In this document: positions 14,421 to 55,550 of the stretch, piece after piece
How positions within the stretch are numbered: the stretch's first letter is position 1
Layout: every line of letters starts with the position of its first letter
Source: a virus
Taxonomy: Duplodnaviria > Caudoviricetes
DNA: 62,806 bases
Reading direction: 5' to 3' (one strand)
Virus record (IMG/VR): IMGVR_UViG_3300028840_002499
Coordinates: 1 to 62,806 of that record
Made by a program: the position numbers and the translations under genes
The notes under the pieces: model-generated
What the model saw: the letters and a program-made list of their open reading frames with translations, nothing else
What the model was told of the DNA's origin: nothing
The model's database searches: none

Positions 14421-14500
14421 AAATTAGTACTTGACATAAACCTATACTATTTGATATAATATTTATATCAGATAATCACTTTTTGAAATCGGAGAAAATT
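14421..14500 (+). promoter_or_regulatory. Promoter-operator-RBS module 1
   Basis: AAATTAGTAC-TTGACA-18-TATAAT, TATCAGATAA, TCGGAGAAAA. Confidence 0.8.
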
Positions 14501-19406: not shown

Positions 19407-19793
19407 GTTGGTTGGACTCTTTCAGGAGAAAGCAATGAGCAATAAATATGCTGAAATGAAATGTGAAGGTGCTTGCGAAAAACACGTTGGAGAAATTGTC
19501 CACGTGCAGGTTATTAGCCCAAAAGGATACGACTGGGGTGATTTTTTGTACTGCGAAGAAGCGGTAGCCGAAGACAGGCGGCGTGATTTCACTGTGCGCC
19601 ACCTAACCACCAATGCAACGGAATTGACTAAACGCTGCGTGCAACCCTAGAATTATGGCGGTGTTTCATGTGGCCGAGAAAGCTATAGAAAAAATGATGG
19701 CTACTTGCTCGCCGTACGGTCATCAGGTTGGCGAAGATGCATTGCAAGAAATCAAAGATTTACTAACACCGCCAAGCCGGTGATTATAGTTCG
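19407..19793 (+). mobile_element. Solo gene cassette (locus 2)
   Basis: Begins GTTGGTTGGACTC (identical to the cassette start at 31569), carries an ORF, ends in an attC-like site. Confidence 0.6.
19435..19650 (+). CDS. Cassette-borne small Cys-containing protein
   Basis: AGGAG RBS; MSNKYAEMKCEGAC... Confidence 0.6.
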   Translation: MSNKYAEMKCEGACEKHVGEIVHVQVISPKGYDWGDFLYCEEAVAEDRRRDFTVRHLTTNATELTKRCVQP

Positions 19794-19799
19794 TTAGAG
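19601..19799 (+). other. attC-like recombination site (long)
   Basis: R'' ACCTAAC, L'' AAT(G)CA / L' TGATT, ATAGTTC spacer, R' GTTAGAG; inner stem TGGCGGTGTT/AACACCGCCA. Confidence 0.7.
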
Positions 19800-19987: not shown

Positions 19988-19996
19988 TATTTTTTT

Positions 19997-20071
19997 AATT
20001 TAGTACTTGACATTTTACGATAAATGTATATAATTAGGTTATCAGATAATCACATTCAATCGGAGAAAAAA
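19997..20071 (+). promoter_or_regulatory. Promoter-operator-RBS module 3
   Basis: AATTTAGTAC-TTGACA-16-TATAAT, GTTATCAGATAAT, TCGGAGAAAA. Confidence 0.8.
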
Positions 20072-20617
20072 ATGTCTAAAAAATGTACAAACCCTTTTCT
20101 TGAATCAGATGGATTTTGCACAAGATGTAGTGAGTACCATTTCAAAACAAATAAAAGAGGGGACGTTTTGACCACAAGGAAACCCACAATAAATAAACGA
20201 GAAAAATTACAAGCTGAAAAATCAGCCAGCATTCAGAGAACCATTGAAAATACTCCTCAGTATAAAGTAGCCAAAGAGACGGTTGAAATGTTGTCTGAAA
20301 TTTATGACATCCAAGTGAAAATTGTTTTTACGAATTTACAAGCTAGTTATCACATTAAAAGGAAAACTGGACACGTAATTAAATTTGGTTATCAGTCTTT
20401 GGATCGATCTTTTGAAAATGGGTTTGACGAGTACAAAATCTTACAATGGATGATCAACTACAAGAAAATTGATGGTATTGAAGGTGCAAGGCAAGAGGCA
20501 ATGCACGAGTTTTCACACGTTTTACAAACTGAAATCCCAGGTGGCAGAACTTACGGTTCATGCCACAACGAAACTTTCATCAAGTGCTACCAGGAAGTTA
20601 TGGAGTTGGTGAACTAA
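20072..20617 (+). CDS. Zincin/SprT-like metalloprotease
   Basis: HEFSH (HExxH) plus downstream 'H...F'. Confidence 0.6.
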   Translation: MSKKCTNPFLESDGFCTRCSEYHFKTNKRGDVLTTRKPTINKREKLQAEKSASIQRTIENTPQYKVAKETVEMLSEIYDIQVKIVFTNLQASYHIKRKTGHVIKFGYQSLDRSFENGFDEYKILQWMINYKKIDGIEGARQEAMHEFSHVLQTEIPGGRTYGSCHNETFIKCYQEVMELVN

Positions 20618-20643: not shown

Positions 20644-20877
20644 ATGGACGAAACAGAAGTTAAATCACAAATGAGTGAAAAAGAAGTTGCATTGAGGTTG
20701 GCAGGATTATTGAACGAATTCTTTTATGATGGTGAACTGCTTGAAGAGTTTTCCGTTCAAGAGTTTGAAGATGCGGAAGTCCTCACCTACGATGATGTTG
20801 GAATGTTGACCATGAATAGCGGGATCGTTATCCGTCTGGAGAATGGGCAAGAAATCAGAATGACGGTTCACGCATAG
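20644..20877 (+). CDS. Hypothetical protein
   Basis: GGAG RBS. Confidence 0.6.
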   Translation: MDETEVKSQMSEKEVALRLAGLLNEFFYDGELLEEFSVQEFEDAEVLTYDDVGMLTMNSGIVIRLENGQEIRMTVHA

Positions 20878-20885
20878 GAGTTGCA

Positions 20886-21137
20886 ATGGCTGGAAAAGTG
20901 ATAGTGAAAGCGAAATGCAGATGTAGCATTTGTGGGTGTAACCTAAGACGGCAAAAGACCATCAAAGTTGCTGCAAGCACTCCAAAAGATGCACAAAGAG
21001 AGATCAGTGGAGTAGTTGAAGAGTGGAAAACAACTCTAACAGATCAACAGTGCAAAATTTGCAATGACATTCTAATGGCAACAGTTAGTGGAGTTGTCAA
21101 CCAAAGAAAACGAAAGGAGCAAGATCATGCCAAGTGA
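20886..21137 (+). CDS. Zinc-finger hypothetical protein
   Basis: CSIC..CKIC. Confidence 0.55.
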   Translation: MAGKVIVKAKCRCSICGCNLRRQKTIKVAASTPKDAQREISGVVEEWKTTLTDQQCKICNDILMATVSGVVNQRKRKEQDHAK

Positions 21138-21297
21138 AAAGGACAAACCAAAGGGAATGAGTAAGTACGGCAAGAAAGTTCAACGCCGTAAACGATTAGC
21201 ACGAACGTTGGGTGTAAGCCCTGACACACCGTATCCAGTTCTTCGTCAGATACAGTCTAGCCAGGATGAAGATGGAAAACAAGAGAGTGAAAACTAG
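21127..21297 (+). CDS. Small basic hypothetical protein
   Basis: AAGGAG RBS before MPSEKD. Confidence 0.5.
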   Translation: MPSEKDKPKGMSKYGKKVQRRKRLARTLGVSPDTPYPVLRQIQSSQDEDGKQESEN

Positions 21298-21378
21298 CTA
21301 GTGATCCTTGATAATGTTTTGGTGGCAATCTGGAGAATTGCCATCAAAGCACAGTCAATGAACACGAAGGAGCAGAAA

Positions 21379-24711: not shown

Positions 24712-25452
24712 ATGGCAAATCAAGCAAAAACTCAATCAGATTTCGATGCACTAGCAGCAGCGGCAGAGGCTGCAGTTGAAGATGCAGAAAAATCGCAAGT
24801 GAAGTCGCAGTTCGGGAAGTTAGCCATTGAACCACGTTATTTGAAGTGGGAAGATGGAGTACCGGAAGAGTGCGATGTGAAAGAGTACATGGCAACCGCT
24901 GGTCGATCCCGCACAATGGAAATCGAGTTTGGTATCGACATTCAAGAGTTCAATCCTGATCTTGAGTGGACTTATGAACGCCGAGTTCGAGTTGGATCAA
25001 CCGACTGGTGGAAGATTCTCAAACCGGCTTTGGAAGAGATTCCAGGTTTCGAGAACGGGTTGTCAAAAGGGAACATGGCAGAAACCCTTGGGAAGTTGAA
25101 CGGTTCTTATGTTCATGCCCATGATGTTTTGCAGTCACCCACTAAGAAACAACCTGATCCCGAATACAAGACCATCAAGATTGTCCACGTATTCGAGAGC
25201 CGTGATGAGTGCTATGCAGAATGGAAATCCATTTTCGGTGACAGTGTTGGCGGTGGTTCTGTGTCCGTTGATGCTCCTCCAGGATGGGACGAAACTTGGG
25301 CCGATGTCTCCGGTGATTTCTACAATCAACTGAGCGAACTTGTTGGGGCCAAAGGGCCACAGCGGGTGAAAGGCATTGCTGCATTAGCCAAAGATTTCGT
25401 AACTGAGAAGGATTGGGTTACGAGCGAGTTGGAAGATTTAGAGAACGCCTAA
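24712..25452 (+). CDS. Hypothetical acidic protein (possible SSB-like)
   Basis: AAGGAG RBS; upstream of nuclease and recombinase; function inferred from position only. Confidence 0.5.
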   Translation: MANQAKTQSDFDALAAAAEAAVEDAEKSQVKSQFGKLAIEPRYLKWEDGVPEECDVKEYMATAGRSRTMEIEFGIDIQEFNPDLEWTYERRVRVGSTDWWKILKPALEEIPGFENGLSKGNMAETLGKLNGSYVHAHDVLQSPTKKQPDPEYKTIKIVHVFESRDECYAEWKSIFGDSVGGGSVSVDAPPGWDETWADVSGDFYNQLSELVGAKGPQRVKGIAALAKDFVTEKDWVTSELEDLENA

Positions 25453-28811: not shown

Positions 28812-28843
28812 GGTGGGGTGGGGAAATCTCACCCCACTTTCCT
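28812..28843 (+). terminator. Rho-independent terminator
   Basis: GTGGGGTG/CACCCCAC followed by TTTCCTT. Confidence 0.6.
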
Positions 28844-28845
28844 TG

Positions 28846-28920
28846 AAATTAGTGCTTGACATTTTACCCAATTTGTATATAATATAAGTATCAGATAACC
28901 TTATTTTTTCGGAGAGAAAA
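28846..28920 (+). promoter_or_regulatory. Promoter-operator-RBS module 4
   Basis: AAATTAGTGC-TTGACA-16-TATAAT, TATCAGATAAC, TCGGAGAGAAAA. Confidence 0.8.
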
Positions 28921-29328
28921 ATGTCAGAAACCTATGTTATAGCAAAAGATAAATCAATCAGGGCAAGAGTTTATGCCCGTTACTGCATGGCAGCCTACAA
29001 TCGGGCGAAATCGTGCGGGAAATTTGAGATCAAAAGAGTGCATCGTGCTTTTGGGTTGGCATTCAAAGAGTTGACCACTGGTGAAACTCCAGATTACCAG
29101 ACCACCATGAAGTCATGCACTTGCAAGGATTACCAACTAGGAAAGCGGTGGAATCGTGGTTTCTGCAAGCACATGATTGCAAAGATGATTGTTCGCAGGG
29201 CAAAAGATTATATGCACGATGAGCACATGAAAGTTATTCGTGAGAAAAAAGCGGAAGAGGAAAAGGAACGGAAGAGGCTAGTTGCCTTTCAAATTGAACT
29301 ACGGCGAAAAGCATTGGAGTTGGGATAA
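28921..29328 (+). CDS. SWIM zinc-finger protein
   Basis: CTC.D......CKH. Confidence 0.75.
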   Translation: MSETYVIAKDKSIRARVYARYCMAAYNRAKSCGKFEIKRVHRAFGLAFKELTTGETPDYQTTMKSCTCKDYQLGKRWNRGFCKHMIAKMIVRRAKDYMHDEHMKVIREKKAEEEKERKRLVAFQIELRRKALELG

Positions 29329-29362
29329 TTAGAACTGGCAACCAAGTTGCTAACTGGAGAGA

Positions 29363-29836
29363 TTGAAAATGCTATACGATAGACTTGTAAAAAGTACAGA
29401 AGATGACCTGAAAATGAGTCTGATAAGGATCGAGAAAAAGTCAAAGTTTTTCAAGGCAGTTACAAGGAAATTGCCACCGTATTTCCCTCATTCGTTGGAT
29501 GATTTTGAAAATCTAGATGGTTATTCGTTTTTCTGGAACTGCTATGTAGATGAAGTTTCCTTGTACATTATCATGCCTTGGATACCAAAAAAGTTTGATG
29601 AAATATGTCTTTTACTAGAACTCTTTGGTTGGGAGTTCGAAAGTGAGCGCAAGGAAACAAACGGTTATCCTGAGTACTATCGATACTACCGTCACCCTGC
29701 AGTTCCAAAAGTGAAAGTCACTGTAAACATGGAAAGTGAAAAAGAGCAGTCAACCTGCGAGTTAGTTGTTGATCGAATTGAACTAGTTGAAAAACCAGTG
29801 TATAAAGTTCAGTGTTCGGATAGCACTGACATATAA
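29363..29836 (+). CDS. Hypothetical protein
   Basis: GGAG RBS. Confidence 0.6.
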   Translation: MKMLYDRLVKSTEDDLKMSLIRIEKKSKFFKAVTRKLPPYFPHSLDDFENLDGYSFFWNCYVDEVSLYIIMPWIPKKFDEICLLLELFGWEFESERKETNGYPEYYRYYRHPAVPKVKVTVNMESEKEQSTCELVVDRIELVEKPVYKVQCSDSTDI

Positions 29837-29852
29837 AAGGAGATTTTGAAAT

Positions 29853-30260
29853 ATGATTGACAGGGAGAACAATTGTAAGAGTTGTGAAATCAAGTTCCGT
29901 TATTACATGCTCCAACCTGGGGATGCAACACGGTACGAGATCGGGATTGCCCCATTACCGGCAAGTGCGAGTGGAGTTGTAAGGGGAACTGGCAATGAAA
30001 AGACCACACAAGAGTACGTTATGATCCTTGTGTCAATGCCAAGTGGCAGTGGAGTGACTATAGTCTCAAAAACCGCTTTGAAGCACGATGTTGATACGGG
30101 ACATTTACTTGGTTACGCAATGTCTCACGGATTCGCTGATGTCCACGAATGGACGGCCTGTGCAGCCTTACTTGCTGCGAGTGTCTTGACATTCGATCCT
30201 GATGACATCAACGGTGCTTGCGAGGCAATGCTAAAAACAGTGGAGGTTCTAGCACAATGA
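29853..30260 (+). CDS. Hypothetical protein
   Basis: AAGGAG RBS. Confidence 0.6.
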   Translation: MIDRENNCKSCEIKFRYYMLQPGDATRYEIGIAPLPASASGVVRGTGNEKTTQEYVMILVSMPSGSGVTIVSKTALKHDVDTGHLLGYAMSHGFADVHEWTACAALLAASVLTFDPDDINGACEAMLKTVEVLAQ

Positions 30261-30400
30261 AAACGACACGGCACAAACTAACAGTGATAATTGTCATAGT
30301 CCTCATGCTGTTGACAGGGTGTAAAATAAAGAAAACACCTCACAACGGGCTAGGTACTCCGTTCCCAACATTGGAACCATCAGTAGTGGAAGGATTGTAA
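30257..30400 (+). CDS. Small lipoprotein
   Basis: Signal peptide with lipobox LTGC; GGAGG RBS. Confidence 0.55.
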   Translation: MKTTRHKLTVIIVIVLMLLTGCKIKKTPHNGLGTPFPTLEPSVVEGL

Positions 30401-30636
30401 TGACAGAAAACGGTAAAGGTCTTTACAGACTCACCAACCGGCAAGAGCAAGTTATCAAGCTAATGTGCGAAGGATCAACACAAACGGAAGTTGCAAAGAC
30501 CCTGTGCGTCACATACGGTACAATAAAAAATCACCTGCAGCTTGCTAAAAAGAGAACCGGTATCAAGACATCTTGGCAGTTGTGTGCAGAGTGGGCAAGA
30601 TGGGACGAGCGCAAGAAACTGAGAATCACGGCATGA
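30400..30636 (+). CDS. LuxR C-terminal HTH regulator
   Basis: 'LTNRQEQVIKL..EG....EVA..L.V...TIKNHL....K'. Confidence 0.85.
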   Translation: MTENGKGLYRLTNRQEQVIKLMCEGSTQTEVAKTLCVTYGTIKNHLQLAKKRTGIKTSWQLCAEWARWDERKKLRITA

Positions 30637-30649
30637 ACCGGAGGCGGGT

Positions 30650-30777
30650 GGCTGGCGTTTTTTGCCAGAGCAGATAAGGGACGAGTGTCAAGGGCATGTT
30701 CCGTAGGAATTTTTAGCCGAAGGCTAAAAACCCTTGCACACTCTAAGTCCCGCTCTGCTATACTGGCAGAGCCAGCC
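30650..30777. repeat. Long branched palindromic element (GTCAAGGG...CCCTTGCAC), copy 2
   Basis: Nested pairs GGCTGGC/GCCAGCC, TGCCAG/CTGGCA, AGCAGA/TCTGCT, GGGAC/GTCCC, GAGTGT/ACACTC, with two apical hairpins. Confidence 0.7.
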
Positions 30778-30854
30778 TTGAGCCGATGAAGGGTTGAACC
30801 GATATATATCGGTTCGCTTAAATCATAGTTAGAAAGAATTGCTAGGAGAATACC

Positions 30855-31187
30855 ATGCAATCAATAGAGCAAGCAAAGTGGCTTTCGTTGGCAGTCTCAG
30901 CTGCACTAAAAGAGTTGCGAAAAGATTGGCCCACAAAGCAGATAGACGAAAGTGAAGTTTCATTCCGGTTCAAATCCGTTGAAGGTGTGCTAATCATGGC
31001 ACTAAATGAAGCACATGCCTTGGTAGAAGAATGGGAAGCAATAGAGAGCAGCCCAACTACGTGTGAAACAGACTCACCTAACGCGGTGCAAAAAATCAAC
31101 ACGGTTTGCCAGGGTTCCAATCATAGTCGGCGGGCTTGTGAGTTCAATCGTTGGGCGGACGCGTTCTGCAAGGAGTTGAAATGCTAA
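30855..31187 (+). CDS. Cassette ORF 1 (reads through the attC-like hairpin)
   Basis: AGGAG RBS after GTTAGAA at 30828. Confidence 0.55.
   Translation: MQSIEQAKWLSLAVSAALKELRKDWPTKQIDESEVSFRFKSVEGVLIMALNEAHALVEEWEAIESSPTTCETDSPNAVQKINTVCQGSNHSRRACEFNRWADAFCKELKC
31051..31156 (+). other. attC-like site (ambiguous right end; alternative R' GTTCTGC at 31163)
   Basis: GCCCAAC/GTTGGGC, TGAA/TTCA, ACTCAC/GTGAGT. Confidence 0.45.
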
Positions 31188-31408
31188 AAGACAGAATTCA
31201 AACATGGGAAAATGCAGTCATAAGAACAGAAGAAAGAATATCTAAACTTTCCGAACTCTTAGAATCTATTGGCAAATCTCACATAAACGAACTTACCCCG
31301 CAAGAATTGTTCGCCGCCCAACTCCAAGTGCAGGGGAATAGCTACGCTATGGGAAACGCAGCCGATGTAGACGAATCAAATTGGACTGCAAATAATGTCA
31401 CGGGTTAG
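31181..31408 (+). CDS. Cassette ORF 2
   Basis: AGGAGTTGAAATG start (same as at 32290); stops 13 nt before R''. Confidence 0.6.
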   Translation: MLKDRIQTWENAVIRTEERISKLSELLESIGKSHINELTPQELFAAQLQVQGNSYAMGNAADVDESNWTANNVTG

Positions 31409-31420
31409 CAACGCCATACC

Positions 31421-31575
31421 CCTGAACATCGTTAGTTAACTCGGAATGGTGATGAGCGGGGCCGAGTCGACGGTAACGGGTAGTTGGCGCTTCAGTGTTA
31501 GGTCGAACACCGGCAAGATCGCGTAACTACCGGCCCCGCTCAAAACTCACCATCCGGTTATGCTCAACGTTGGTT
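31421..31575 (+). other. attC-like site (long family A)
   Basis: CCTGAAC...GTTGGTT; stems TGGTGA/TCACCA, GAGCGGGGCC/GGCCCCGCTC, GGTAGTT/AACTACC. Confidence 0.7.
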
Positions 31576-31599
31576 GGACTCGTTGGAAAGGATCGCAAC

Positions 31600-31890
31600 A
31601 TGCACACTAAAGTACAAATAATTTGCAAAAATAATAAGCCCTACGGTATCCGAGATGATGCTGGCTTCTTATTCTTCTTTACGAAAGTGAGTAAATTTCA
31701 AGGACAAGAAGAAAGATACCGCCAGGAACTTGAAGAACAGTTTACCCTTGCTGATTATCTTTTGACAGCATTGCAAGAAAGGGGCCAACCAACACCAAAT
31801 GCAGCTTATACGCCACGGCAGAAATTGGACGGTACAAATAATTCTAGTGTCCCAAACAACGGCGGCACTAATGACACGCCAACCCCCTGA
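31600..31890 (+). CDS. Cassette ORF 3 (stop codon in the attC L' box)
   Basis: AAGGA RBS; MHTKVQ...; TGA of CTGATT. Confidence 0.6.
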   Translation: MHTKVQIICKNNKPYGIRDDAGFLFFFTKVSKFQGQEERYRQELEEQFTLADYLLTALQERGQPTPNAAYTPRQKLDGTNNSSVPNNGGTNDTPTP

Positions 31891-31906
31891 TTATAGTTCG
31901 TTATGC
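31787..31906 (+). other. attC-like site (TGATTATAGTTCGTT family)
   Basis: AACCAAC-ACCA-AAT(G)CAG ... CTGATT-ATAGTTC-GTTATGC. Confidence 0.75.
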
Positions 31907-31938
31907 ACTCTATTCGCTAGAAATGAAAGGAAAAAGAG

Positions 31939-32109
31939 ATGATAAACAAGAAAAGATACGCATTCAATATTGTATTTATGCTAGTGTCAGCCATAACAAT
32001 TTTATGGGCGTATATGTTTTTTAGCCTGCCTGATCTATGGCTTGTGGTTGTGTCTATTGGTGTAGGTGGATTTATGGCATTCCTAGACCATGTGTTTTTT
32101 AATAATTAG
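31939..32109 (+). CDS. Cassette ORF 4, 2-TM membrane micro-protein (56 aa)
   Basis: MINKKRYAFNIVFMLVSAITILW...DHVFFNN*; stop is 4 nt before R''. Confidence 0.6.
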   Translation: MINKKRYAFNIVFMLVSAITILWAYMFFSLPDLWLVVVSIGVGGFMAFLDHVFFNN

Positions 32110-32112
32110 AGT

Positions 32113-32264
32113 GCATAACAAATCACAGCACACGGAATGTTGATGAACGGGGCCGAGCCGACGGTAATGGGTAGACACGACACAGGTCTAGGTCGGACGA
32201 CAGAAATCCGCGTACCTACCAGCCCCGTTCAAAACTCACCATCTGGTGTGTTCAACCGTTAAGT
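32113..32264 (+). other. attC-like site (long family A)
   Basis: GCATAAC...GTTAAGT; homologous to 31421-31575 with compensatory changes. Confidence 0.75.
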
Positions 32265-32289
32265 GTCATGTTGCCTGATAGGAGTTGAA

Positions 32290-32589
32290 ATGTACGGATA
32301 CATATTTTTGTATTTTATTCTCTGTGTGTCGTTTGCAATCGGTATGTTTGTGGGTGAATACAGGCATGAGAAGGTCAGCAAATCAACGGTCTTTTTATAC
32401 ATTGTTTTTTGTGCACTCGCAGCCCCCATTTTATTCTTTGCGTTGTTGGGTGAGTTTCTTGTTTTACAATCAAAAGTCCACCCAACCACAAATGCAGTTG
32501 ACACGCCTGCGCTGCACCGTTGCGTTGATTGTGGATCTGATTTACAACTGGTGTGCCCTGGCAAATATCAATGTCCGGCGTGCCACTGA
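32290..32589 (+). CDS. Cassette ORF 5, 2-TM protein with an attC-encoded zinc ribbon
   Basis: AGGAG RBS; C-terminus CVDC..CPAC lies inside the attC loop; stop at L' TGA. Confidence 0.6.
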   Translation: MYGYIFLYFILCVSFAIGMFVGEYRHEKVSKSTVFLYIVFCALAAPILFFALLGEFLVLQSKVHPTTNAVDTPALHRCVDCGSDLQLVCPGKYQCPACH

Positions 32590-32605
32590 TTATAGTTCGT
32601 TATAT
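32480..32605 (+). other. attC-like site (TGATTATAGTTCGTT family)
   Basis: ACCCAAC-CACA-AAT(G)CAGT..CACGCC / GGCGTG..ACTGATT-ATAGTTC-GTTATAT. Confidence 0.8.
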
Positions 32606-32617
32606 GGCAAAGCTATT

Positions 32618-32968
32618 ATGAACACCTACGAAGAGTGGAAAGTTTTTGCAAATAAACCGGGCGCAATCACAACCGTCATGTATCAAGATTGGTTGCTACA
32701 GGGTTGCCCGAAGTGCGATGGTAAAGAGTGGGAACTCACCAACGACGGTTGGGCATATTGCTGTGGGTGCAGTAAAGGCTATTCAACCAATGGTATATGG
32801 GTTCATGCGCCCTTAGTTTTCTACGACAAGAACGGGTATCACTGTTTTATGTGTCGTGGATATGGCAAGCGAGATGGGGCAACCTGTGAAGATTGCTGTG
32901 GTAGATTTACGCAACCAGAAACGCTTTGCGCTTCTAACAAATCGTTAGAGACAGACCCGCCGCAATAG
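32618..32968 (+). CDS. Cassette ORF 6, Cys-rich zinc-finger protein
   Basis: MNTYEEW...; several CxxC motifs; stops inside the attC. Confidence 0.6.
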   Translation: MNTYEEWKVFANKPGAITTVMYQDWLLQGCPKCDGKEWELTNDGWAYCCGCSKGYSTNGIWVHAPLVFYDKNGYHCFMCRGYGKRDGATCEDCCGRFTQPETLCASNKSLETDPPQ

Positions 32969-32999
32969 CGGCTTGAATAGCTCAACTCAACCGTTAGGG
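32932..32999 (+). other. Canonical-size attC site (68 bp)
   Basis: R'' TTCTAAC, 5-nt spacer, L'' GTT(A)GAG, inner GCCGC/GCGGC hairpin, L' CTCAAC, 6-nt spacer, R' GTTAGGG. Confidence 0.85.
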
Positions 33000-33008
33000 T
33001 GAATACCT

Positions 33009-33248
33009 ATGAAAATACATTACAGCACATGGAATGGCTACTACAATACAATCGCTTGTGGCAAAAAAGCGGTTGAAGCGCGAGCCGATAAATCTCTAGT
33101 CACTTGTGGCCTTTGCAAGAAAACCAATGTATTCACCCTAACTATCAATGCAAGCGACTTTGATAAATCTCGCGCAAGAAATGAATATTGCAAGCATGGC
33201 ATTGTTTTCCCGCATTGTATAACTTGCAATAGCACTCAAAGCGCTTGA
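33009..33248 (+). CDS. Cys-rich small protein (last cassette-like ORF)
   Basis: ATG 16 nt after R'; CxxC motifs. Confidence 0.6.
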   Translation: MKIHYSTWNGYYNTIACGKKAVEARADKSLVTCGLCKKTNVFTLTINASDFDKSRARNEYCKHGIVFPHCITCNSTQSA

Positions 33249-33255
33249 GTCTAAA

Positions 33256-33492
33256 ATGAGATATTTCGTCAAATGTCAATGTGGCCTCAGATCGTTTGCA
33301 TTCAATGATCGTTGTTTGCATTGCAACTATAAATTTGAGAAGTGTGATGAGTGCGAAAAGTCAATCTCTCATGATGCTGGTCACTATCCACACGATAAGG
33401 ACTGTAATCAAAAGGATGACGACATTTTACAGTGTGATTGTGACAACACAACTTGTGAACAGTGCTGTTGGGAGTGTGCCAAATTAACTTGA
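33256..33492 (+). CDS. Cys-rich small protein
   Basis: Multiple CxxC motifs. Confidence 0.55.
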   Translation: MRYFVKCQCGLRSFAFNDRCLHCNYKFEKCDECEKSISHDAGHYPHDKDCNQKDDDILQCDCDNTTCEQCCWECAKLT

Positions 33493-33517
33493 CTCTAAAA
33501 ATCCTATATGCTACAAT
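33489..33517 (+). promoter_or_regulatory. sigma70-like promoter
   Basis: TTGACT-17-(TGC)TACAAT. Confidence 0.65.
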
Positions 33518-33522
33518 GCAGT

Positions 33523-33660
33523 AGAGTTCTAGTTTTCAAGCTAGTTTCACTCCAGGTAATTTGACGATCTCTGGAGCGGGTGAGAACCTAAAGTGGTAGT
33601 TCTCCGACTATCACGTGGTTATCTGATAACTCTCCCTCTCCCAAGATCGTCAAATTATTT
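33523..33660 (+). ncRNA. Candidate structured ncRNA
   Basis: 14-bp perfect closing stem TAATTTGACGATCT/AGATCGTCAAATTA, inner GGAG.GGG.GAG/CTC.CCC.CTCC, two apical hairpins, no ORF, own promoter. Confidence 0.5.
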
Positions 33661-33740
33661 AAATTTACTCTTGACAAATTACTGAAAATGTATATAATTA
33701 TAGCTATCAGATAACCTATTTTTTTGATCGGAGAAAACCT
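33661..33740 (+). promoter_or_regulatory. Promoter-operator-RBS module 5
   Basis: TTGACA-16-TATAAT, TATCAGATAAC, TCGGAGAAAA. Confidence 0.8.
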
Positions 33741-35333
33741 ATGAAATGCCCAAACTGTGGAAAAGAAATGAAATTGCGACATCGAAGGTCAGACGGCAAT
33801 CCGTTCTGGGGATGCAGTGGATTTCCTAAATGTCGTGGAACTGCACGATACATCGAAACTCAGGAAAGACTAGATGTCAATTGGTCAGAGTACCAAGTGG
33901 CAGTTTTTGACTTCATTAAAAACGAAACTGGGAACGCAGTAGTTGAGGCGGTTGCAGGATCAGGAAAAACCACCACCATCGTTGAGGGATTGAATTACAC
34001 CCCCAAAGATAAGAGAGTTGCCTTTGTAGCTTTCAATCGGAGAATCGCAAACGAACTTGGAAAACGAGCACCAGCGCATGTTCACGTTAGCACTCTCCAC
34101 TCACTTGGTCTAAAAAACATCCGTGAACACTACGGAAAGATCAAAATTGAAAATCGGAAGTTCTGGCTAATCTGGAAGGATTACATTGCCACTGTTGACC
34201 ATCTCACCAAAGACAAACTGGATGACAACGCAGTTGTAGTCCGAGATTTAGTTGGCAAGATCAAGGCAACATTGCTTGAGCCTACTCACGATAACTTGAA
34301 TTACATTTGTGATCATTTCGGAATTCATGTAAATGGGTCAGCTAACCTGATCTTCAACGCAGTAAAAGCGGTCTTTGAAATCTCAGTCCAGATGATTGAT
34401 CAGATGGTTGATTTCGATGACATGATTTATGCTCCAGCCAGCGGGATGGTTCCTTGCCAGGAATTCGATTTCCTTTTCGTTGACGAAGCTCAAGACCTGA
34501 ATGCAGCGCAAATCTCATTTGTTCTAAACTCCCAGGCCAACGGTGGCAGAATCATTGCAGTAGGCGATAGAGCGCAGAGCATCTACGGTTTTCGGGGTGC
34601 AGATACCCAGGCAATTCCCAATCTAATTAGTGCCTTGAATGCGAAAGTTCTTCCCTTATCTATCTGCTACCGATGCCCTAAGTCTCACATCGAAATGGCA
34701 CAAGAGTTGGTTCCCACAATTGAACCATTTGAGGGCAAGGAAGTTGGTACAATCGGCAACATCTCATTTTCACAACTAATGGAAACAGTAAAACCTGGGG
34801 ATTTAGTAATGTGCAGAATCAATGCTCCATTGGTTGCACCGGCATTTGAACTCATTCGACAAGGGATTAAGGCAGTAGTTCTTGGTAGGGACATCGGTAA
34901 GGGACTGGAAACTTTGATCAAGAAAATTGCAAAGAAGGGTGGCAGCAATTCTTTACTCGATCTACTTCACGATATGAGCGAGTATCGAGATCGAGAAGTC
35001 AGCAAGTTAGTTGCTGCTAAGAAAATGGGGAGAGCCGCTAGTTTAGATGATCAAATTGAAACCATCATAGCTCTAGCAAGTGGCTGCGACACAGTTGATG
35101 AACTCTTCACCAAAATTGAAACAGTGTTTGATGATCGAGAACAGGGAGTTGTCTTTTCATCAGTTCACAAGGCAAAAGGAACTGAGGCTGATCGTACATT
35201 CATCCTACGAAATGACTTAATGCCTCACCCAATGGCAACAAGCGGGTGGCAGATTGAACAGGAACTAAATTGCCAGTATGTAGCTTATACCAGGGCAAAA
35301 GAGGAAATGTACTTTGTGAGTGGGGGCTTTTAG
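33741..35333 (+). CDS. UvrD/Rep-like SF1 helicase with N-terminal topoisomerase-type Zn ribbon
   Basis: 'CPNCG..M..R.....FWGCSGFPKC', 'AVAGSGKT', 'VDEAQD', 'VGD..QSIYGFRGA', 'HKAKG.E', 'YVAYTRAK'. Confidence 0.9.
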   Translation: MKCPNCGKEMKLRHRRSDGNPFWGCSGFPKCRGTARYIETQERLDVNWSEYQVAVFDFIKNETGNAVVEAVAGSGKTTTIVEGLNYTPKDKRVAFVAFNRRIANELGKRAPAHVHVSTLHSLGLKNIREHYGKIKIENRKFWLIWKDYIATVDHLTKDKLDDNAVVVRDLVGKIKATLLEPTHDNLNYICDHFGIHVNGSANLIFNAVKAVFEISVQMIDQMVDFDDMIYAPASGMVPCQEFDFLFVDEAQDLNAAQISFVLNSQANGGRIIAVGDRAQSIYGFRGADTQAIPNLISALNAKVLPLSICYRCPKSHIEMAQELVPTIEPFEGKEVGTIGNISFSQLMETVKPGDLVMCRINAPLVAPAFELIRQGIKAVVLGRDIGKGLETLIKKIAKKGGSNSLLDLLHDMSEYRDREVSKLVAAKKMGRAASLDDQIETIIALASGCDTVDELFTKIETVFDDREQGVVFSSVHKAKGTEADRTFILRNDLMPHPMATSGWQIEQELNCQYVAYTRAKEEMYFVSGGF

Positions 35334-35359
35334 CCCCTACTCCAGATTGGAGTAATAAG

Positions 35360-35821
35360 ATGATCGAAAAATTTGATGGTGACTATGCTTTTTTGTCTAA
35401 TTTCTATCCTGCGAATATTGAGTTTCTTGGTGATGTCTATGCAACTTCTGAACATTTGTATCAAGCTATGAAAACATTAGACTCTGCAAAGCGAAGGTTT
35501 ATTCGAGGGCAACAAACTCCAGGCAAGGCAAAAAGAGTTGGTCAAAAAATTGTATCAAGATCAGATTGGAACGAAGTCAAAGAAGAAGTAATGTTGCAAG
35601 TTATGAGAATGAAGTTTTTCCAGAACTATGATGCTGCTGTCAAATTGCTTGAAACTGGAAGTAAAATTTTAGTAGAGGGCAATAACTGGCATGATAATTT
35701 TTGGGGAATATGTGATTGCAATTATGGGAGTTGTGTTTCTTGGGAACATCCACAAAACAAACTTGGAAAAATTCTAATGCAAGTTCGCGATGAAATCAAA
35801 GTTTTTGGAATTGAAAACTAA
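35360..35821 (+). CDS. NADAR family protein
   Basis: 'FLSNFY', 'SEH.YQA.K', 'AKR.G', 'KF.Q....LL.TG...LVEGN.W.D.FWG', 'N.LG.ILM.VR'. Confidence 0.9.
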   Translation: MIEKFDGDYAFLSNFYPANIEFLGDVYATSEHLYQAMKTLDSAKRRFIRGQQTPGKAKRVGQKIVSRSDWNEVKEEVMLQVMRMKFFQNYDAAVKLLETGSKILVEGNNWHDNFWGICDCNYGSCVSWEHPQNKLGKILMQVRDEIKVFGIEN

Positions 35822-35850
35822 AGCATCCAAAAGTAATCTAAGGTGAAATT

Positions 35851-36381
35851 ATGGCTATCGATATATTCACAACCGAAGAGTTTGAAAACGCTTTACCCAG
35901 AGACAAGTCAACTAATGAACCGTTGTGGATCAAACTAGGTTGCATTTCAGGTGAATATTCTTATCTAATCCCCATCGATGACAAAGTTAGTATCATGGTT
36001 CGTTCATCGATTAGTAAGAGCGGTACAAGTGCTGACACTGGAGATGATAGTATTCGTGCATGGTTAGTTACTTATGAAACAATCGAGAAAATCACAGGAG
36101 TTGTTTACCGGAATTTCAAACCACTTGGCAGTAAGGTTTCAGAGTACACAACACGAGTACCAGGATGGGGCAAGAGATTAGTAAGTAATGAGAATTCAGT
36201 TGTTAGAACTCTTTGGAGATGGCGAAAGAAAGCGGGTGACTGCAAGCACTGTGGAACTCCTCAGGGAGTTTACAAGGTGAAAAAGAATAACCAGAATAAG
36301 GGTAGACTATTCACCAAGTGCAATCATCCAGCTTGTGCAATGAGATCGAAAACTTTTGAGTGGTTGACGGAGGTGAAGTGA
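35851..36381 (+). CDS. Protein with C-terminal GRF-type zinc finger
   Basis: 'C..C......VKK...NKGRLF.KC....C....FEW'. Confidence 0.6.
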   Translation: MAIDIFTTEEFENALPRDKSTNEPLWIKLGCISGEYSYLIPIDDKVSIMVRSSISKSGTSADTGDDSIRAWLVTYETIEKITGVVYRNFKPLGSKVSEYTTRVPGWGKRLVSNENSVVRTLWRWRKKAGDCKHCGTPQGVYKVKKNNQNKGRLFTKCNHPACAMRSKTFEWLTEVK

Positions 36382-51554: not shown

Positions 51555-53009
51555 TTAGAAATCTCCTACAGTGTAAATCTTATTGCAGTTGCAAACGTGG
51601 ACATCATAGAGAGGCCCAACGCCAGGAGGTAAACTCTGAGTAACCCAAGTCCACCCACCGTTTATGGTTCTGAACAAACTGCCAACAGTTCCACCGGTAG
51701 AGATGTGAGTTATGTAACCGACATAATCGTTGCAGAATTTTATTGATTGAATCTCACCAGTTGCAGAACCTGGGTAAGATCGTTCAAACCAGGAATCACC
51801 TCCATCGTTAGTGAAATACAAGTTCCCATTGTCATAACCAATCCAAACTCGATTACGATCTAGTGCAAACACAGCTTGTACAGTGTTCAATGTTTCTGCA
51901 GGTGGAGCAGTAATTGAACTCCAGTTCTCCCCATCAGTAGTTTTCAAGATTGTATTGTTAGCACCAACGGCATAACCAACCTTGTCTGATGAAAAGTGAA
52001 CAGCGTACAAGTCTTGAGTTGTTGTTGCACCACTCTCTTGTGCAGTCCAAGTTAGTCCAGCGTCATCTGAGAAGTAGATATATCCACCAGTAGTGACAAG
52101 CCAGATGTTTGAACTATTCCAAGCAAACATCGGATTTCCACGACCGATTGCATATTGACCATTTACAGAACCAACGTCTACATTAGTCCACGTTGCGCCT
52201 CTATCATCACTGTAACCAATTTCAGCGGGGTTCAATCCATCCAAAACACCACGAGCGGCAATAACACGAAACGAGTTCTTAGCAATCTGAACGTCAACAA
52301 TTCCAGAAACATCCTCATGTGACTGGAACGGATTAGTTGCAGTTGGATACCAGACAAGGCCAGCGTCATCAGTGTAATAGACATTCGTTGGAGAACCAAC
52401 AAGTCCAGTTACACCAATGTACCCATCCTGACAGGCAGAGTGAATATTTCCACATTGACCATAGCATTTTCTTGAGCCGGAGAAAGCAACAGTCAATGCA
52501 ATTTGACCGACAACACTAACAATGTTCTGTTTACCGGTTGCCATTGGAAAGACACGATGCATGGTCTTTGCAGCCACATCAAACGACTGCATAGACCGAT
52601 CTTGATCATCTGGAGTCATTATCGCAACAGATGACATTGTATCGTTTGTGATCATAGCCTTGTCGAGGATTACTGTCCTATCCCAATTGTCAAAAACATC
52701 TTTGCGCCCACAAAGTACTTGATGGACATAAATTGGAACTGGACAGTCTACAACCTCAAGCCAATCGGCACTTGATCTAAGTACAGACTGTATAGAAGTC
52801 TCGACCGGACTAGGGCCACCGGATGAGTAAATATCCAATGGTATGAATTTATTTGGATGTTCAACATCAGGAATCAGAACAAGGTTAGCATCACCTCTTG
52901 ACCTTCCGATTTCTCCTAACGTATGGCATCCTAGATAGTAGGGCTGAGTGTTGGGGCCGTCTGGTTGTAACCAGATAGCCCCCGCACCAGCAAGAAAACT
53001 CTTAGCCAT
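51555..53009 (-). CDS. Tail-tube-like protein 2 with BNR/Ycf48-type beta-propeller
   Basis: Paralog of 53035..54483; repeated S/T.D.G.TW Asp-boxes. Confidence 0.65.
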   Translation of the reverse strand: MAKSFLAGAGAIWLQPDGPNTQPYYLGCHTLGEIGRSRGDANLVLIPDVEHPNKFIPLDIYSSGGPSPVETSIQSVLRSSADWLEVVDCPVPIYVHQVLCGRKDVFDNWDRTVILDKAMITNDTMSSVAIMTPDDQDRSMQSFDVAAKTMHRVFPMATGKQNIVSVVGQIALTVAFSGSRKCYGQCGNIHSACQDGYIGVTGLVGSPTNVYYTDDAGLVWYPTATNPFQSHEDVSGIVDVQIAKNSFRVIAARGVLDGLNPAEIGYSDDRGATWTNVDVGSVNGQYAIGRGNPMFAWNSSNIWLVTTGGYIYFSDDAGLTWTAQESGATTTQDLYAVHFSSDKVGYAVGANNTILKTTDGENWSSITAPPAETLNTVQAVFALDRNRVWIGYDNGNLYFTNDGGDSWFERSYPGSATGEIQSIKFCNDYVGYITHISTGGTVGSLFRTINGGWTWVTQSLPPGVGPLYDVHVCNCNKIYTVGDF

Positions 53010-53034: not shown

Positions 53035-54483
53035 CTAGTTCGATGCCTTGACAATCATTGCGGTTCCACCTTGCAGTTCACCAACTGAAAACAGTTCGTT
53101 ATCACCGCAAACTTGAATCGCATTCAACCCACTATTGGTAGGCGTAGTAATGGTTTGCCAAGAGTAGCCACCATCGATAGTTCGGTACAGAACGTCAGCA
53201 GAACTTCCACCGACTAAGAAAGCATAAAGTTCATTTGCGAACTCAATACTAGGAACGGAAGAGCCAAAGTCCTGTCGAAGTGTCCAAGTTGTTCCACCAT
53301 CAAGAGAGTAATACAACTCCCCATCATCGGTTCCAACCCAGATACGGTTACGATCAACCATAGCGATAGATTGAATATCACCACCGCCACCGGTAGCAGT
53401 CACAACAGACCAAGTGTCACCACCGTCAACGGTTTTCAAAATCACATCACCAGCACCACCAGCAAACCCAACATTTGCATCAATGAAAAACACAGCGTAG
53501 AGATCAGCGGCAGTAGCAGTGCCATCTTCTTGCAGTGTCCATGTTGCACCACCATTGGATGAATAACCAATGTTGCCACCTTCGAGGACTACCCAGATGT
53601 TGTTAGGATCAAGAGCAAACAAGGCATTGCCACCGAGCGCACCAATGTTGTTCGCAGTGGGAATGTCAGATAACGTCCAAGTTGCACCATTATCATCCGA
53701 ATACGCAGCCTCCGCATTATCAGCAGCGTCCGACTCACGAACACAAAGAATGCGAGTGGTATCCTTGTCAATCGGGAAACAGACTACAGATAGAATGTCC
53801 TCATCAGCTGCGAATGGGTCAGCAGCAGTAGCAGCGAAACTTGCACCACGATCAGTTGACCGTAGAATGTGGGCAGTAACACCAGCACCAGCATCGTGAG
53901 CAGTAACCATGACATCACAAACGTCTGATCCCTCTCCACAATCACCAGCACACGCTTCATCGGAACAACTAGCAATACTGTTAGCAGCAACAGCCTCAGT
54001 TGTTGCCTTTCGTTGTCCTACAACTTCAAACCCTTTGAACAAGTCCTCACTAGCCATTGAGAATGTGTCGAGTACCTCATCCTGATTGTCTGGAGTACGA
54101 GCCGAAAGATTGGCAATTGCCTCAGTTGTGATGTAGGTTGCAGGAAGTGAATAGGCCCGTTCAAACACAAAAGTGTCTTTCCTTCCACATTTGTTCATAA
54201 GTACGTGAACTGGAACAGGACATTTCACCTTTTCTAGCCAATCGGCAGTTCTACCGACCTTCATCTCAATGTCAAAAGTGACAGCACCAGGAGCGGCTTG
54301 AGATGAGTTTTCAACCACGAACTTGTTTGGAGCAGATGGGTCAGGGCAATAGTAAAGAGTTACATCGCCCTTGGGAACATCGATACCTAATAGTTGGTGA
54401 CAACCAAGGTAACGAGGTTTGGTGTTAGCGCCATCTGGTTGAATAAAAATTGCGCCTTCACCTGCTAAATAAAAATCACTCAT
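53035..54483 (-). CDS. Tail-tube-like protein 1 with BNR/Ycf48-type beta-propeller
   Basis: At the major-tail position; shared 'LAG.GAI..QPDG.NT.P.YLGCH'; Asp-boxes. Confidence 0.65.
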   Translation of the reverse strand: MSDFYLAGEGAIFIQPDGANTKPRYLGCHQLLGIDVPKGDVTLYYCPDPSAPNKFVVENSSQAAPGAVTFDIEMKVGRTADWLEKVKCPVPVHVLMNKCGRKDTFVFERAYSLPATYITTEAIANLSARTPDNQDEVLDTFSMASEDLFKGFEVVGQRKATTEAVAANSIASCSDEACAGDCGEGSDVCDVMVTAHDAGAGVTAHILRSTDRGASFAATAADPFAADEDILSVVCFPIDKDTTRILCVRESDAADNAEAAYSDDNGATWTLSDIPTANNIGALGGNALFALDPNNIWVVLEGGNIGYSSNGGATWTLQEDGTATAADLYAVFFIDANVGFAGGAGDVILKTVDGGDTWSVVTATGGGGDIQSIAMVDRNRIWVGTDDGELYYSLDGGTTWTLRQDFGSSVPSIEFANELYAFLVGGSSADVLYRTIDGGYSWQTITTPTNSGLNAIQVCGDNELFSVGELQGGTAMIVKASN

Positions 54484-55005: not shown

Positions 55006-55550
55006 TATGCGTCCGGTGCTGCTAAGATTGAAAAGTTGCGAACATCGAATTTTTCACCAGCAAATAGCTGGATAATTCGAGTGACCACCTTTCCGTAAGT
55101 CCAAGTTCCAGGAATTGTAGGCAATCCTTGATTGGTGAAAAATGTATTTATCCTACTCACAACTTGTGATGAAATCCTAACGTTGAATCTTACTTCTTGA
55201 TTTTCATCGTAACTGATAGAAACTAATGGTACTAACTGATCACCAGCTTGAGTGTTAATGGTTTGCAGTCTTGATGTGGAACTTGCCACTAACAGACAGA
55301 ACCAGTTCCCAAGTCTACCGATCTTTACATAACCACCGGCACGTAATGGAACTTCTATGTCGTATGGTTCACCAAACCCAACAAATGCTTGAATTGTTTC
55401 TCCAGTAGGTTCCCCGTCTTCGTCTAAAATAGGCCGTTCTTCAAAGACTGGATCACGTGCTAGAGTAGTGACTATTTCTCCAGTATCGAAGTCCAGAGCA
55501 TTCACCACATCTTGTGCAATATCTTTATGTACTAGAATGTAAGCTAACAT
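55005..55550 (-). CDS. Hypothetical protein
   Basis: Coupled ORF. Confidence 0.55.
   Translation of the reverse strand: MLAYILVHKDIAQDVVNALDFDTGEIVTTLARDPVFEERPILDEDGEPTGETIQAFVGFGEPYDIEVPLRAGGYVKIGRLGNWFCLLVASSTSRLQTINTQAGDQLVPLVSISYDENQEVRFNVRISSQVVSRINTFFTNQGLPTIPGTWTYGKVVTRIIQLFAGEKFDVRNFSILAAPDA

Follow-up and report, generated by a model that had tools for sequence, protein, structure and literature searches.

In the complete virus record IMGVR_UViG_3300028840_002499 (62,806 bp, Caudoviricetes; hereafter the window), small phage genes end in copies of a repeat that we name the S element. The S element is a phage-private two-part repeat, in which a 22-nt 5' box and a 27-nt 3' box enclose a variable insert. 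Our verdict is that it is a coding, exchangeable 3' junction module and a variant of known cassette-junction systems. The reading that we prefer, with a probability of roughly 0.45, is that the S elements are copies of a junction repeat at the ends of small early genes, which form a cassette-like array, and that the boxes are exchange points for gene cores and tails. The array itself has integron cassette geometry without an integrase, and it includes at least one genuinely attC-like site.

The two-part S repeat

The sequence TGATTATAGTTCGTTA occurs exactly three times in the window, at 19781, 31888 and 32587, always on the + strand, and every one of its TGA triplets is the stop of an open reading frame (ORF). 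TGATTATAGTTCGTT(A) is found at the same three positions on the + strand (exact count 3 in 62.8 kb). By our own arithmetic, each extra exact copy of a 16-mer has an expectation of about 3e-5 in 62.8 kb, and the second and third copies of the 16-mer are therefore not due to chance. The complete 27-nt 3' box, CGCCAAnCCnnTGATTATAGTTCGTTA, provides the TGA stop and has a GTTA word 9 nt further on. It has four members, at 19770, 31412, 31877 and 32576 (repeat family D5), and 100-180 nt upstream of each there is a 22-nt 5' box with a consensus of about GCCACCYAAC-N4-AATGCAR, which makes four full S copies; a fifth 5' box is at 33132. Scored over the whole window with position matrices derived from the same copies that they score, the 5' boxes obtain 24.3-33.3 bits versus 12.5 for the next best match, and the 3' boxes 38.3-44.4 bits versus 6.9. 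The inserts of S1, S2 and S3 are 72, 78 and 151 nt in length, and their sequences are mutually unrelated. A preliminary description made from the sequence alone listed three sites; it did not include the degenerate fourth copy (S4) or the fifth 5' box (S5).

All S elements, ORFs, cassettes and sites named below are on the + strand, apart from A1, to which no strand is assigned. S1 (31783-31903) is formed by a 5' box at 31783-31804, the 72-nt insert, and a 3' box at 31877-31903 with its TGA at 31888 and its GTTA at 31900. It closes ORF96 (31600-31890), a protein of 96 aa from its ATG that includes a conserved core of about 62 aa and a 34-aa tail encoded by S1. S2 (32476-32602) has its 5' box at 32476-32497, an insert that encodes CVDC...CPAC, and its 3' box at 32576-32602 with the TGA at 32587. 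It closes ORF99 (32290-32589; 99 aa), which has two hydrophobic stretches in its N-terminal part (Kyte-Doolittle, 19-residue window) and a zinc-ribbon tail encoded by S2, with the C-terminus ...HRCVDCGSDLQLVCPGKYQCPACH, that is, CVDC...CPACH and then the stop. A word-indexed protein search finds no homologue of ORF99.

In S3 (19597-19796, 200 nt), the 5' box at 19597-19618 and the 3' box at 19770-19796, with its TGA at 19781, are separated by the 151-nt insert, and the box-to-TGA distance of 178 nt is not a multiple of 3. Here the 5' box is LTTNA in the frame of ORF71 (19435-19650), whose TAG stop is within the insert, and ORF42 (19655-19783; 42 aa) starts 4 nt past the ORF71 stop in a different frame, stays inside S3, and ends on the TGA of the 3' box. 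The frame of ORF42 is open from 19628, and a 1-nt shift between 19628 and 19648 would produce an ORF71-ORF42 fusion ending on the box TGA; the arrangement could be a decayed or frameshifted tail. S4 (31312-31438) has degenerate boxes at 31312-31333 and 31412-31438, and ORF75 passes its 5' box in another frame to stop at 31408, 15 nt ahead of the box TGA. With S3 split across two ORFs by a 1-nt phase difference and S4 read in another frame, the tails are not uniformly kept. S5 (33132-33248) has a 5' box at 33132-33153, read as LTINA within ORF79, and no S-type 3' box; ORF79 stops at the TGA at 33246, and an exhaustive search finds no homologues for it except spurious repeat-protein matches.

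These observations bear out much of the preliminary description. It had three ORFs stopping exactly on the TGA of the repeat (31600-31890, 32290-32589 and 19655-19783), which is confirmed, as is its statement that the 42-aa ORF is wholly inside its site. It had described ORF99 as a zinc ribbon fused to a protein with two transmembrane segments, and we see both the cysteine-containing tail and the hydrophobic stretches. Its more general proposals, that the ORFs use the repeat elements as coding space and that small proteins unrelated to one another receive variable C-terminal tails from them, in one case a zinc ribbon, also stand, with the stop in the conserved 3' box.

Coding capacity of the inserts

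Reading is in frame from the 5' box to the box TGA in both S1, a distance of 99 nt, and S2, one of 105 nt. Under dinucleotide shuffling (5000 trials each), the insert stays open in frame in a fraction 0.32 of the trials for S1, 0.38 for S2 and 0.11 for ORF42. By our own arithmetic, the joint chance including the 1-in-3 phase is about 1e-2 to 1e-3, which is beyond chance, though not overwhelming. The S1 insert has a codon log-odds score of 0.29 and ORF42 one of 0.19, where windows from true genes have a mean of 0.38 and off-frame windows one of -0.74. The S2 insert encodes CxxC-N11-CxxC, and the more general pattern CxxC-N8-20-CxxC is found in 60 of the 32,905 35-aa windows of all six-frame open stretches. 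The inserts appear to be coding.

Comparison with attC sites

The preliminary description had taken the three sites to be attC sites of an integron-like system. Using the attC of aadA1 in plasmid R100 as the reference, we fetched 80 integron loci with its IntI1, used ends and fold to select natural attC sites in these loci, and made two covariance models, R1 and R2. R1 finds 96 sites in 66 integron loci, 94 of them on the cassette strand; R2 was trained on those 96 sites, and the window was searched with filters off. The E-values of these attC models are rough because calibration was shortened. With R2, S2 is the third-best match over the window, at 14.0 bits with an E-value of 0.66, and neither S1 nor S3 is found as a whole site.

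Folding does not make the S elements attC-like. In the whole-site test, which covers S1 and S2, single-stranded DNA folding of the two strands results in z-scores of +2.24 and +1.46 for S1 and +1.03 and +0.24 for S2, no better than shuffles. In an end-pairing test, the first and last 24 nt of a site are joined by a short linker and then folded. The S elements as they stand in the array have z-scores of +0.87 (S1), +0.08 (S2) and +0.03 (S3), versus -1.6 to -6.1 for nine real attCs, all nine of which form the expected two-stem base. In attC sites, RYYYAAC is the inverse core pattern R'' at the 5' end. The corresponding words ACCCAAC (S2), ACCTAAC (S3) and GCCCAAC (S4) are of this type and AACCAAC (S1) is not, the constant part being AAC. 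For R', the words at the end of the 3' box are GTTATGC, GTTATAT and GTTAGAG, none of which fits GTTRRRY, the constant part being GTT. The L boxes of the S sites are without the core-like words present in the real attC sites and in the neighbouring attC-like site A3. No S-type box is present in the 0.94 Mb of the 80 integron loci. In the complete genome there are no matches to the tyrosine recombinase (PF00589) or serine recombinase (PF00239) families, for which the control genomes are positive in 14/14 and 12/14 cases.

None of the structural tests identifies S1-S3 as attC sites, and that part of the preliminary description is not supported: there is no fold, the ends are unpaired, the model is weak on S2 and misses S1 and S3, and no recombinase is found. 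Unlike attC sites, the S elements have neither a hairpin nor L-box words, their insert is read as protein, and the attC model is weak or silent on them. One can still suppose that the S elements function as attC and are acted on by the integron integrase of a host. An in-frame coding insert, with its stop in the L' box, would then have taken the place of the variable terminal structure, the dispensable tip of the hairpin. The RYYYAAC-type words of S2, S3 and S4 and the GTT words at the end of the 3' box speak for this, as do a pairing of AAT(G)CAG with CTGATT, with one bulged G, seen by eye in S1 and S2, and the rank and right ends of S2 among matches to a model of real attCs. So do the nearby A3 and the boundary rule described below, which S1, S4 and S5 satisfy. 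There is also a precedent: 17 phages, virulent ones included, are reported to have attC clusters without integrase, and IntI1 recombined five of six tested sites (PMC9892861; Qi et al. 2023). Against it are the failed structural and model tests, the mismatched R' words and L boxes, the absence of the box from the integron loci, the lack of an integrase in the genome and the 200-nt length of S3. The attC identity of the S elements is unproven, and we find it unlikely. If it were true, integron-type recombination in a phage would move genes plus exon-like C-terminal modules, such as zinc ribbons, across unrelated proteins.

Cassette boundaries and neighbouring junctions

Perfect GTTNNNN/NNNNAAC pairs with a spacer of 80-400 nt number eight in 30600-33600, where shuffles have 1.42 and none of 1000 reaches eight; elsewhere in the window there are 2.26 per 3 kb. 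Four of the eight bracket ORF75, ORF96, ORF56 and the start of ORF79, and extend to 9, 9, 13 and 14 bp. The ORF75 cassette (31150-31322) starts with GTTGGGCGG at 31150-31158 and has the complement CCGCCCAAC at 31314-31322 in the S4 5' box. The ORF96 cassette (31569-31793) starts with GTTGGTTGG at 31569-31577 and has the complement CCAACCAAC at 31785-31793 in the S1 5' box. The ORF56 cassette (31900-32119; ORF at 31939-32109) is enclosed by a perfect 13-bp inverted repeat (31900-31912 / 32107-32119), and the first 40 codons of ORF79 (32993-33142) are enclosed by a perfect 14-bp inverted repeat (32993-33006 / 33129-33142). The last two are the longest perfect inverted repeats in the window with an 80-400 nt spacer.

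As in attC arrays, the element at the end of a cassette starts with bases complementary to those that begin the cassette, and the cassette boundaries obey this integron rule for four cassettes. The complementarity here is 9-14 bp, unlike in attC, where it is about 7 bp. Between the start of a site and its own cassette start it is 9 bp for S1, 9 bp for S4 and 14 bp for S5; for S2 and S3 we count by eye 6/8 and 7/9 complementary bases, neither of them significant. When cassettes are circularised in silico, the ends pair for ORF75/S4 (z -5.2), ORF56/A2 (z -5.8) and ORF96/S1 (z -2.0); the ends of A3 fail to pair with its own cassette start in this form.

Two genes of the array read into sites other than the S elements, as had been proposed. 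ORF110 (30855-31187), the first gene of the array, reads through a weak site at 31051-31156, and ORF116 (32618-32968), a zinc-finger protein, has its last 12 codons (36 nt) inside A3. A3 (32932-32999) is directly after ORF116 and in gene orientation. It is the top match of both attC models over the window and the sole significant one (26.4 and 27.9 bits; E 4e-4 and 3e-4), in agreement with the real-attC model, and it is the best candidate in this phage for a true attC. The end words of A3 resemble those of the aadA1 attC of plasmid R100. A2 (32113-32264) is a GC-rich hairpin bounded by GCATAAC and GTTAAGT with a borderline attC-model match (18.0 bits, E 0.07). The top three R2 matches over the window (A3, A2 and S2) are all on the + strand and within 900 nt; given the first, the chance of two more random matches within 1 kb on the same strand is about 2.5e-4 by our own arithmetic. 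Applied to 14 other phage loci (84.7 kb), R2 has no match at E<=1.

By the criterion of IntegronFinder, a cluster of attC sites lacking an integrase (CALIN) has at least two model-detected attC sites near each other on one strand and no integrase. In the array (30.8-33.3 kb), A3 has an E-value of 3e-4, A2 one of 0.07 and S2 one of 0.66; A3 alone is clearly significant. Of the integron idea in the preliminary description, what survives is the neighbourhood, with the attC-like A3 and a boundary rule followed by four cassettes, and not the identification of S1-S3 as attC.

A1 (31440-31565), directly after the S4 3' box, is a strong GC-rich hairpin (z -6.2 and -6.0) and a paralogue of A2. The paralogous stretches, 31440-31565 and 32125-32255, sit between small genes, and a 27-nt block of their 5' arm is conserved though partly unpaired. 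A small protein encoded in this conserved block was considered and dropped, all four differences being non-synonymous by eye. Neither A1 nor A2 has an Rfam match, and their arm pattern has no occurrence in viral contigs. In a distant relative (L213, 2940-2985), a gene of the ORF96 family is preceded by CGTTAGTTAACCTGG, a near-match to 31428-31443 of the window, where the A1 hairpin comes next instead, as if A1 had been inserted at that word.

Tail variation among homologues

The core of ORF96 (KNNKPYGIRD...QEERYR...LADYLL, about 60 aa, 31600-31785) is that of a small protein of unknown function that is widespread in phages, with no Pfam match among 54 members of the family. Of 53 sequences with the LADYL motif, 30 end at most 16 residues past the motif, and the others have unrelated tails of 19-81 residues. 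Eight of the 53 (seven homologues and ORF96 of the window) have a tail that starts with (L/P)TxxA, the in-frame translation of the 5' box. In P0013, the closest homologue (77% identical), the sequence is shared as far as GQPTP, beyond which there is an unrelated CxxC...CxxC tail. Among more distant viral loci with ORF96 relatives, the short form is present in 9 of 12, and there are no S boxes at the gene ends examined in the 12 loci. The ORF116 family (five homologues) behaves similarly: its core extends to TQP and is followed by tails of 3, 3, 4, 17 and 41 aa. It has no member in viral contigs and no tblastn match in the phage GenBank collection.

One S2-like copy is in a different context. 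A minor contig of 284 nt from the sequencing runs X1 and X2 (depth 3.5 versus 18) matches the window at 32491-32603 only. The matching part is S2 from just within the 5' box through GTTAT; the contig brings a 5' box of its own upstream (...GCCACCTAACTTTT), and its remaining sequence is unrelated on both sides. There are 11 differences from S2, seven of which are listed; these seven leave all four Cys codons in place, one of them being a change from TGT to TGC. As evidence of exchange this contig is suggestive, its depth being below 5 and its samples possibly the window's own source. The preliminary description had made frame conservation of the loop among homologues the check on its proposal. 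The result is divided: the cysteine codons are untouched by the listed changes, while 30 of 53 ORF96 and 3 of 5 ORF116 homologues stop just after the core.

The same data can be described at the level of proteins. The S element would encode a linker (HLTxNA) and a small C-terminal zinc-binding domain belonging to paralogous small proteins, and the identity of the DNA would be due to recent duplication or gene conversion. Four of the five 5' boxes are read in one common frame as (P/L)TxNA, and that of the variant contig is read likewise; the seven homologues with (L/P)TxxA tails, the CxxC pairs in several tails and the intact Cys codons of the S2-like copy point the same way. CTAAC, however, is stop-free in two frames only, and the common frame is therefore weak evidence. 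The perfectly conserved part of the 3' box is downstream of the stop codon, S4 is in another frame and S3 is split over two, and there is no relation among the S1, S2 and S3 inserts, the first of which has no cysteine. We consider this description improbable as an account of the repeat.

Searches for the repeat elsewhere

In the phage GenBank collection there is no DNA match to 29000-36000, and a plasmid collection searched with A3 returns chance matches only, of 24-27 nt. Relatives of the phage's helicase are only 34-36% identical and are without S-type repeats. The 5'-box pattern occurs at 30 loci in viral contigs, none of which has a 3' box, and CCNN followed by the 16-mer occurs at 13 loci in metagenome contigs, none of them related. 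The 16-mer itself occurs at 110 loci in viral contigs, none with a 5'-box-like motif upstream; 89 of the loci belong to one unrelated promoter family, and 21 are others. In that family (L002 and 88 other viral contigs) the 16-mer coincides in part with the -10 region and leader of TTGACA-N18-TATGAT, a conserved promoter before one gene. This looks like a coincidence or a convergent signal.

Another reading is that the boxes are duplicated gene-expression signals that take no part in recombination, and that the tails are accidental read-through. The signal would be a phage promoter, an RNA processing site or a fixed stop-and-restart junction, and the promoter family counts in favour of this reading. 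In all three exact copies the next start codon is 28-51 nt downstream of the 3' box, and most homologues have no tail. Short ORFs in att sites (ORF-11, ORF-17 and ORF-18 in attI1, and others within attC) are reported to help translation of the next cassette (PMC8876359). However, only S3 has a promoter-like match, of 9/12, and we rejected the 3' box as a promoter on that result. Expression signals also leave unaccounted for the 5' box 100-180 nt upstream, the inverted repeats at the cassette boundaries, and the S2-like insert amid unrelated flanks. An explanation by expression signals has in our view a low probability.

Proposed exchange at the boxes

We return to the preferred reading, in which the S elements are junction modules and the boxes are exchange points. 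The upstream gene runs into the 5' box, and the variable insert would then be translated as the tail of that gene. The 3' box gives the stop codon, and the next cassette would begin at the GTTA word 9 nt later. The two conserved boxes would be the points where gene cores and tails swap between phage genomes; a short tail at the C-terminus, which in some cases is a zinc ribbon, could therefore be gained, lost or swapped by unrelated proteins with the stop signal retained. Candidates for the enzyme are phage homologous recombination acting on identities of 20-27 nt, a host integron integrase acting at GTT words, or both. Whole cassettes may have been assembled by a host integron integrase, which may still be moving them. 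The role of the boxes as recombination points and the choice of enzyme are inferences.

Several points weigh against this proposal. The S2 insert has a poor codon score (-0.24). In the circular form, S2 (z +1.3) and S3 (z -0.5) have no complementarity to their own cassette starts. Only one site, A3, is significant under an attC model whose E-values are rough. S-type and hairpin-type junctions alternate strictly along the array, which the proposal does not account for. The 13 nt GTTGGTTGGACTC recur as the leader after two separate junctions (19407 and 31569), which fits homologous exchange better than a G|TT crossover. The evidence for box-to-box exchange consists of protein tails and one 284-nt contig of low depth, for which chimeric assembly is possible. 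Finally, the conserved 5' box could reflect a constraint on protein rather than on DNA, and by eye there is no compensatory change in pairs between the boxes in the four copies.

Other mechanisms were considered informally and dropped. A diversity-generating retroelement does not agree with inserts that are unrelated rather than adenine-mutated copies. For shufflon-type inversion, the inserts have no reverse-strand ORFs; for Xer/dif-type modules, the boxes have no two-arm palindrome; and for TA-duplicating miniature transposons, the terminal repeats differ between units.

Relation to known systems

Homogeneous attC families of sedentary chromosomal integrons have conserved ends and more variable centres, next to unrelated cassette ORFs in one genome. 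The S repeats are like them in all three respects, and differ in that those families are full-length imperfect palindromes and the S inserts are not. T4-type phages have regulatory cassettes named PeSL, which were reportedly treated by Comeau and colleagues in 2014. In these cassettes, recombination at short conserved intergenic motifs reshuffles small early genes (PMC2839356; Arbiol et al. 2010). As in the S array, short conserved motifs are found between small non-essential early genes; single genes are shuffled, deleted or replaced there, as would happen at the S boxes. A PeSL is a strong promoter plus a terminator stem-loop, and non-coding, unlike the S element, which is partly translated and has neither: for a sigma-70 promoter there is the 9/12 match of S3 only, and for a terminator no stable fold.

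The phages with CALIN described in PMC9892861 are like this one in having an array of small ORFs on the same strand, junctions of the form ...AAC 5' / GTT... 3', and no phage integrase. Integrase-less attC clusters in phages are thus already described, and the array setting is therefore not new. The short ORFs in att sites treated in PMC8876359 resemble the S element in that recombination-site DNA is translated and the conserved site provides the stop codon. They differ in being separate leader peptides for translational coupling, whereas S DNA lengthens the cassette protein by 30-35 residues. In the literature searched, no junction repeat is described with a variable middle translated as the C-terminal tail of a cassette protein; this was a limited search, and absence from print is not implied.

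If the boxes are exchange points, they would offer the phage a compact route to reshuffle whole small genes plus C-terminal tails, and every new combination would terminate because the stop codon is built into the junction. This would join the integron-type arrays of virulent phages with the linker-mediated shuffling of early genes, and add junction DNA as a part of the protein. For annotation, the tails of such small phage proteins are not to be taken as conserved domains.

Other features of the genome

The window is the full virus record and has direct terminal repeats of 144 nt. Among its gene products are helicases, a portal and a large terminase; for the majority of the large proteins there is no match in PHROGs. 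Ten small ORFs have no Pfam or PHROGs match above the cut-off, and Rfam at gathering scores has no match across the window. The composition of the array is ordinary, with a GC content of 0.39-0.49. This stretch is found in two public runs, one sediment metagenome and one seawater metagenome, each of them a possible source of it; almost none of it is present in runs X3 and X4, and no RNA run is listed among the sequencing runs that contain it. Contigs of minor variants at 20839-21309 and 25260-25378 have depths of 3-5 versus 16-22 and many substitutions in the same runs, and a second strain of the phage therefore coexists in those runs.

Strong sigma-70-type promoters (TTGACA-16-TATAAT, 12/12) are repeated at 19991-20081, 28840-28930, 33655-33737 and 14438-14498. 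They have 46-88 nt of common context that includes the leader and ribosome-binding site, and they split the early region into operons. In 33489-33650, just upstream of the strong promoter at 33671, a promoter-like TTGACT-17-TACAAT precedes an ORF-free stretch of about 130 nt, which could be a small RNA gene. On the minus strand there are neighbouring large paralogues, 55550-57472 with 57475-59388 and 51555-53009 with 53035-54483 (repeat families D2, D6 and D9), which are probably duplicated tail or fibre genes.

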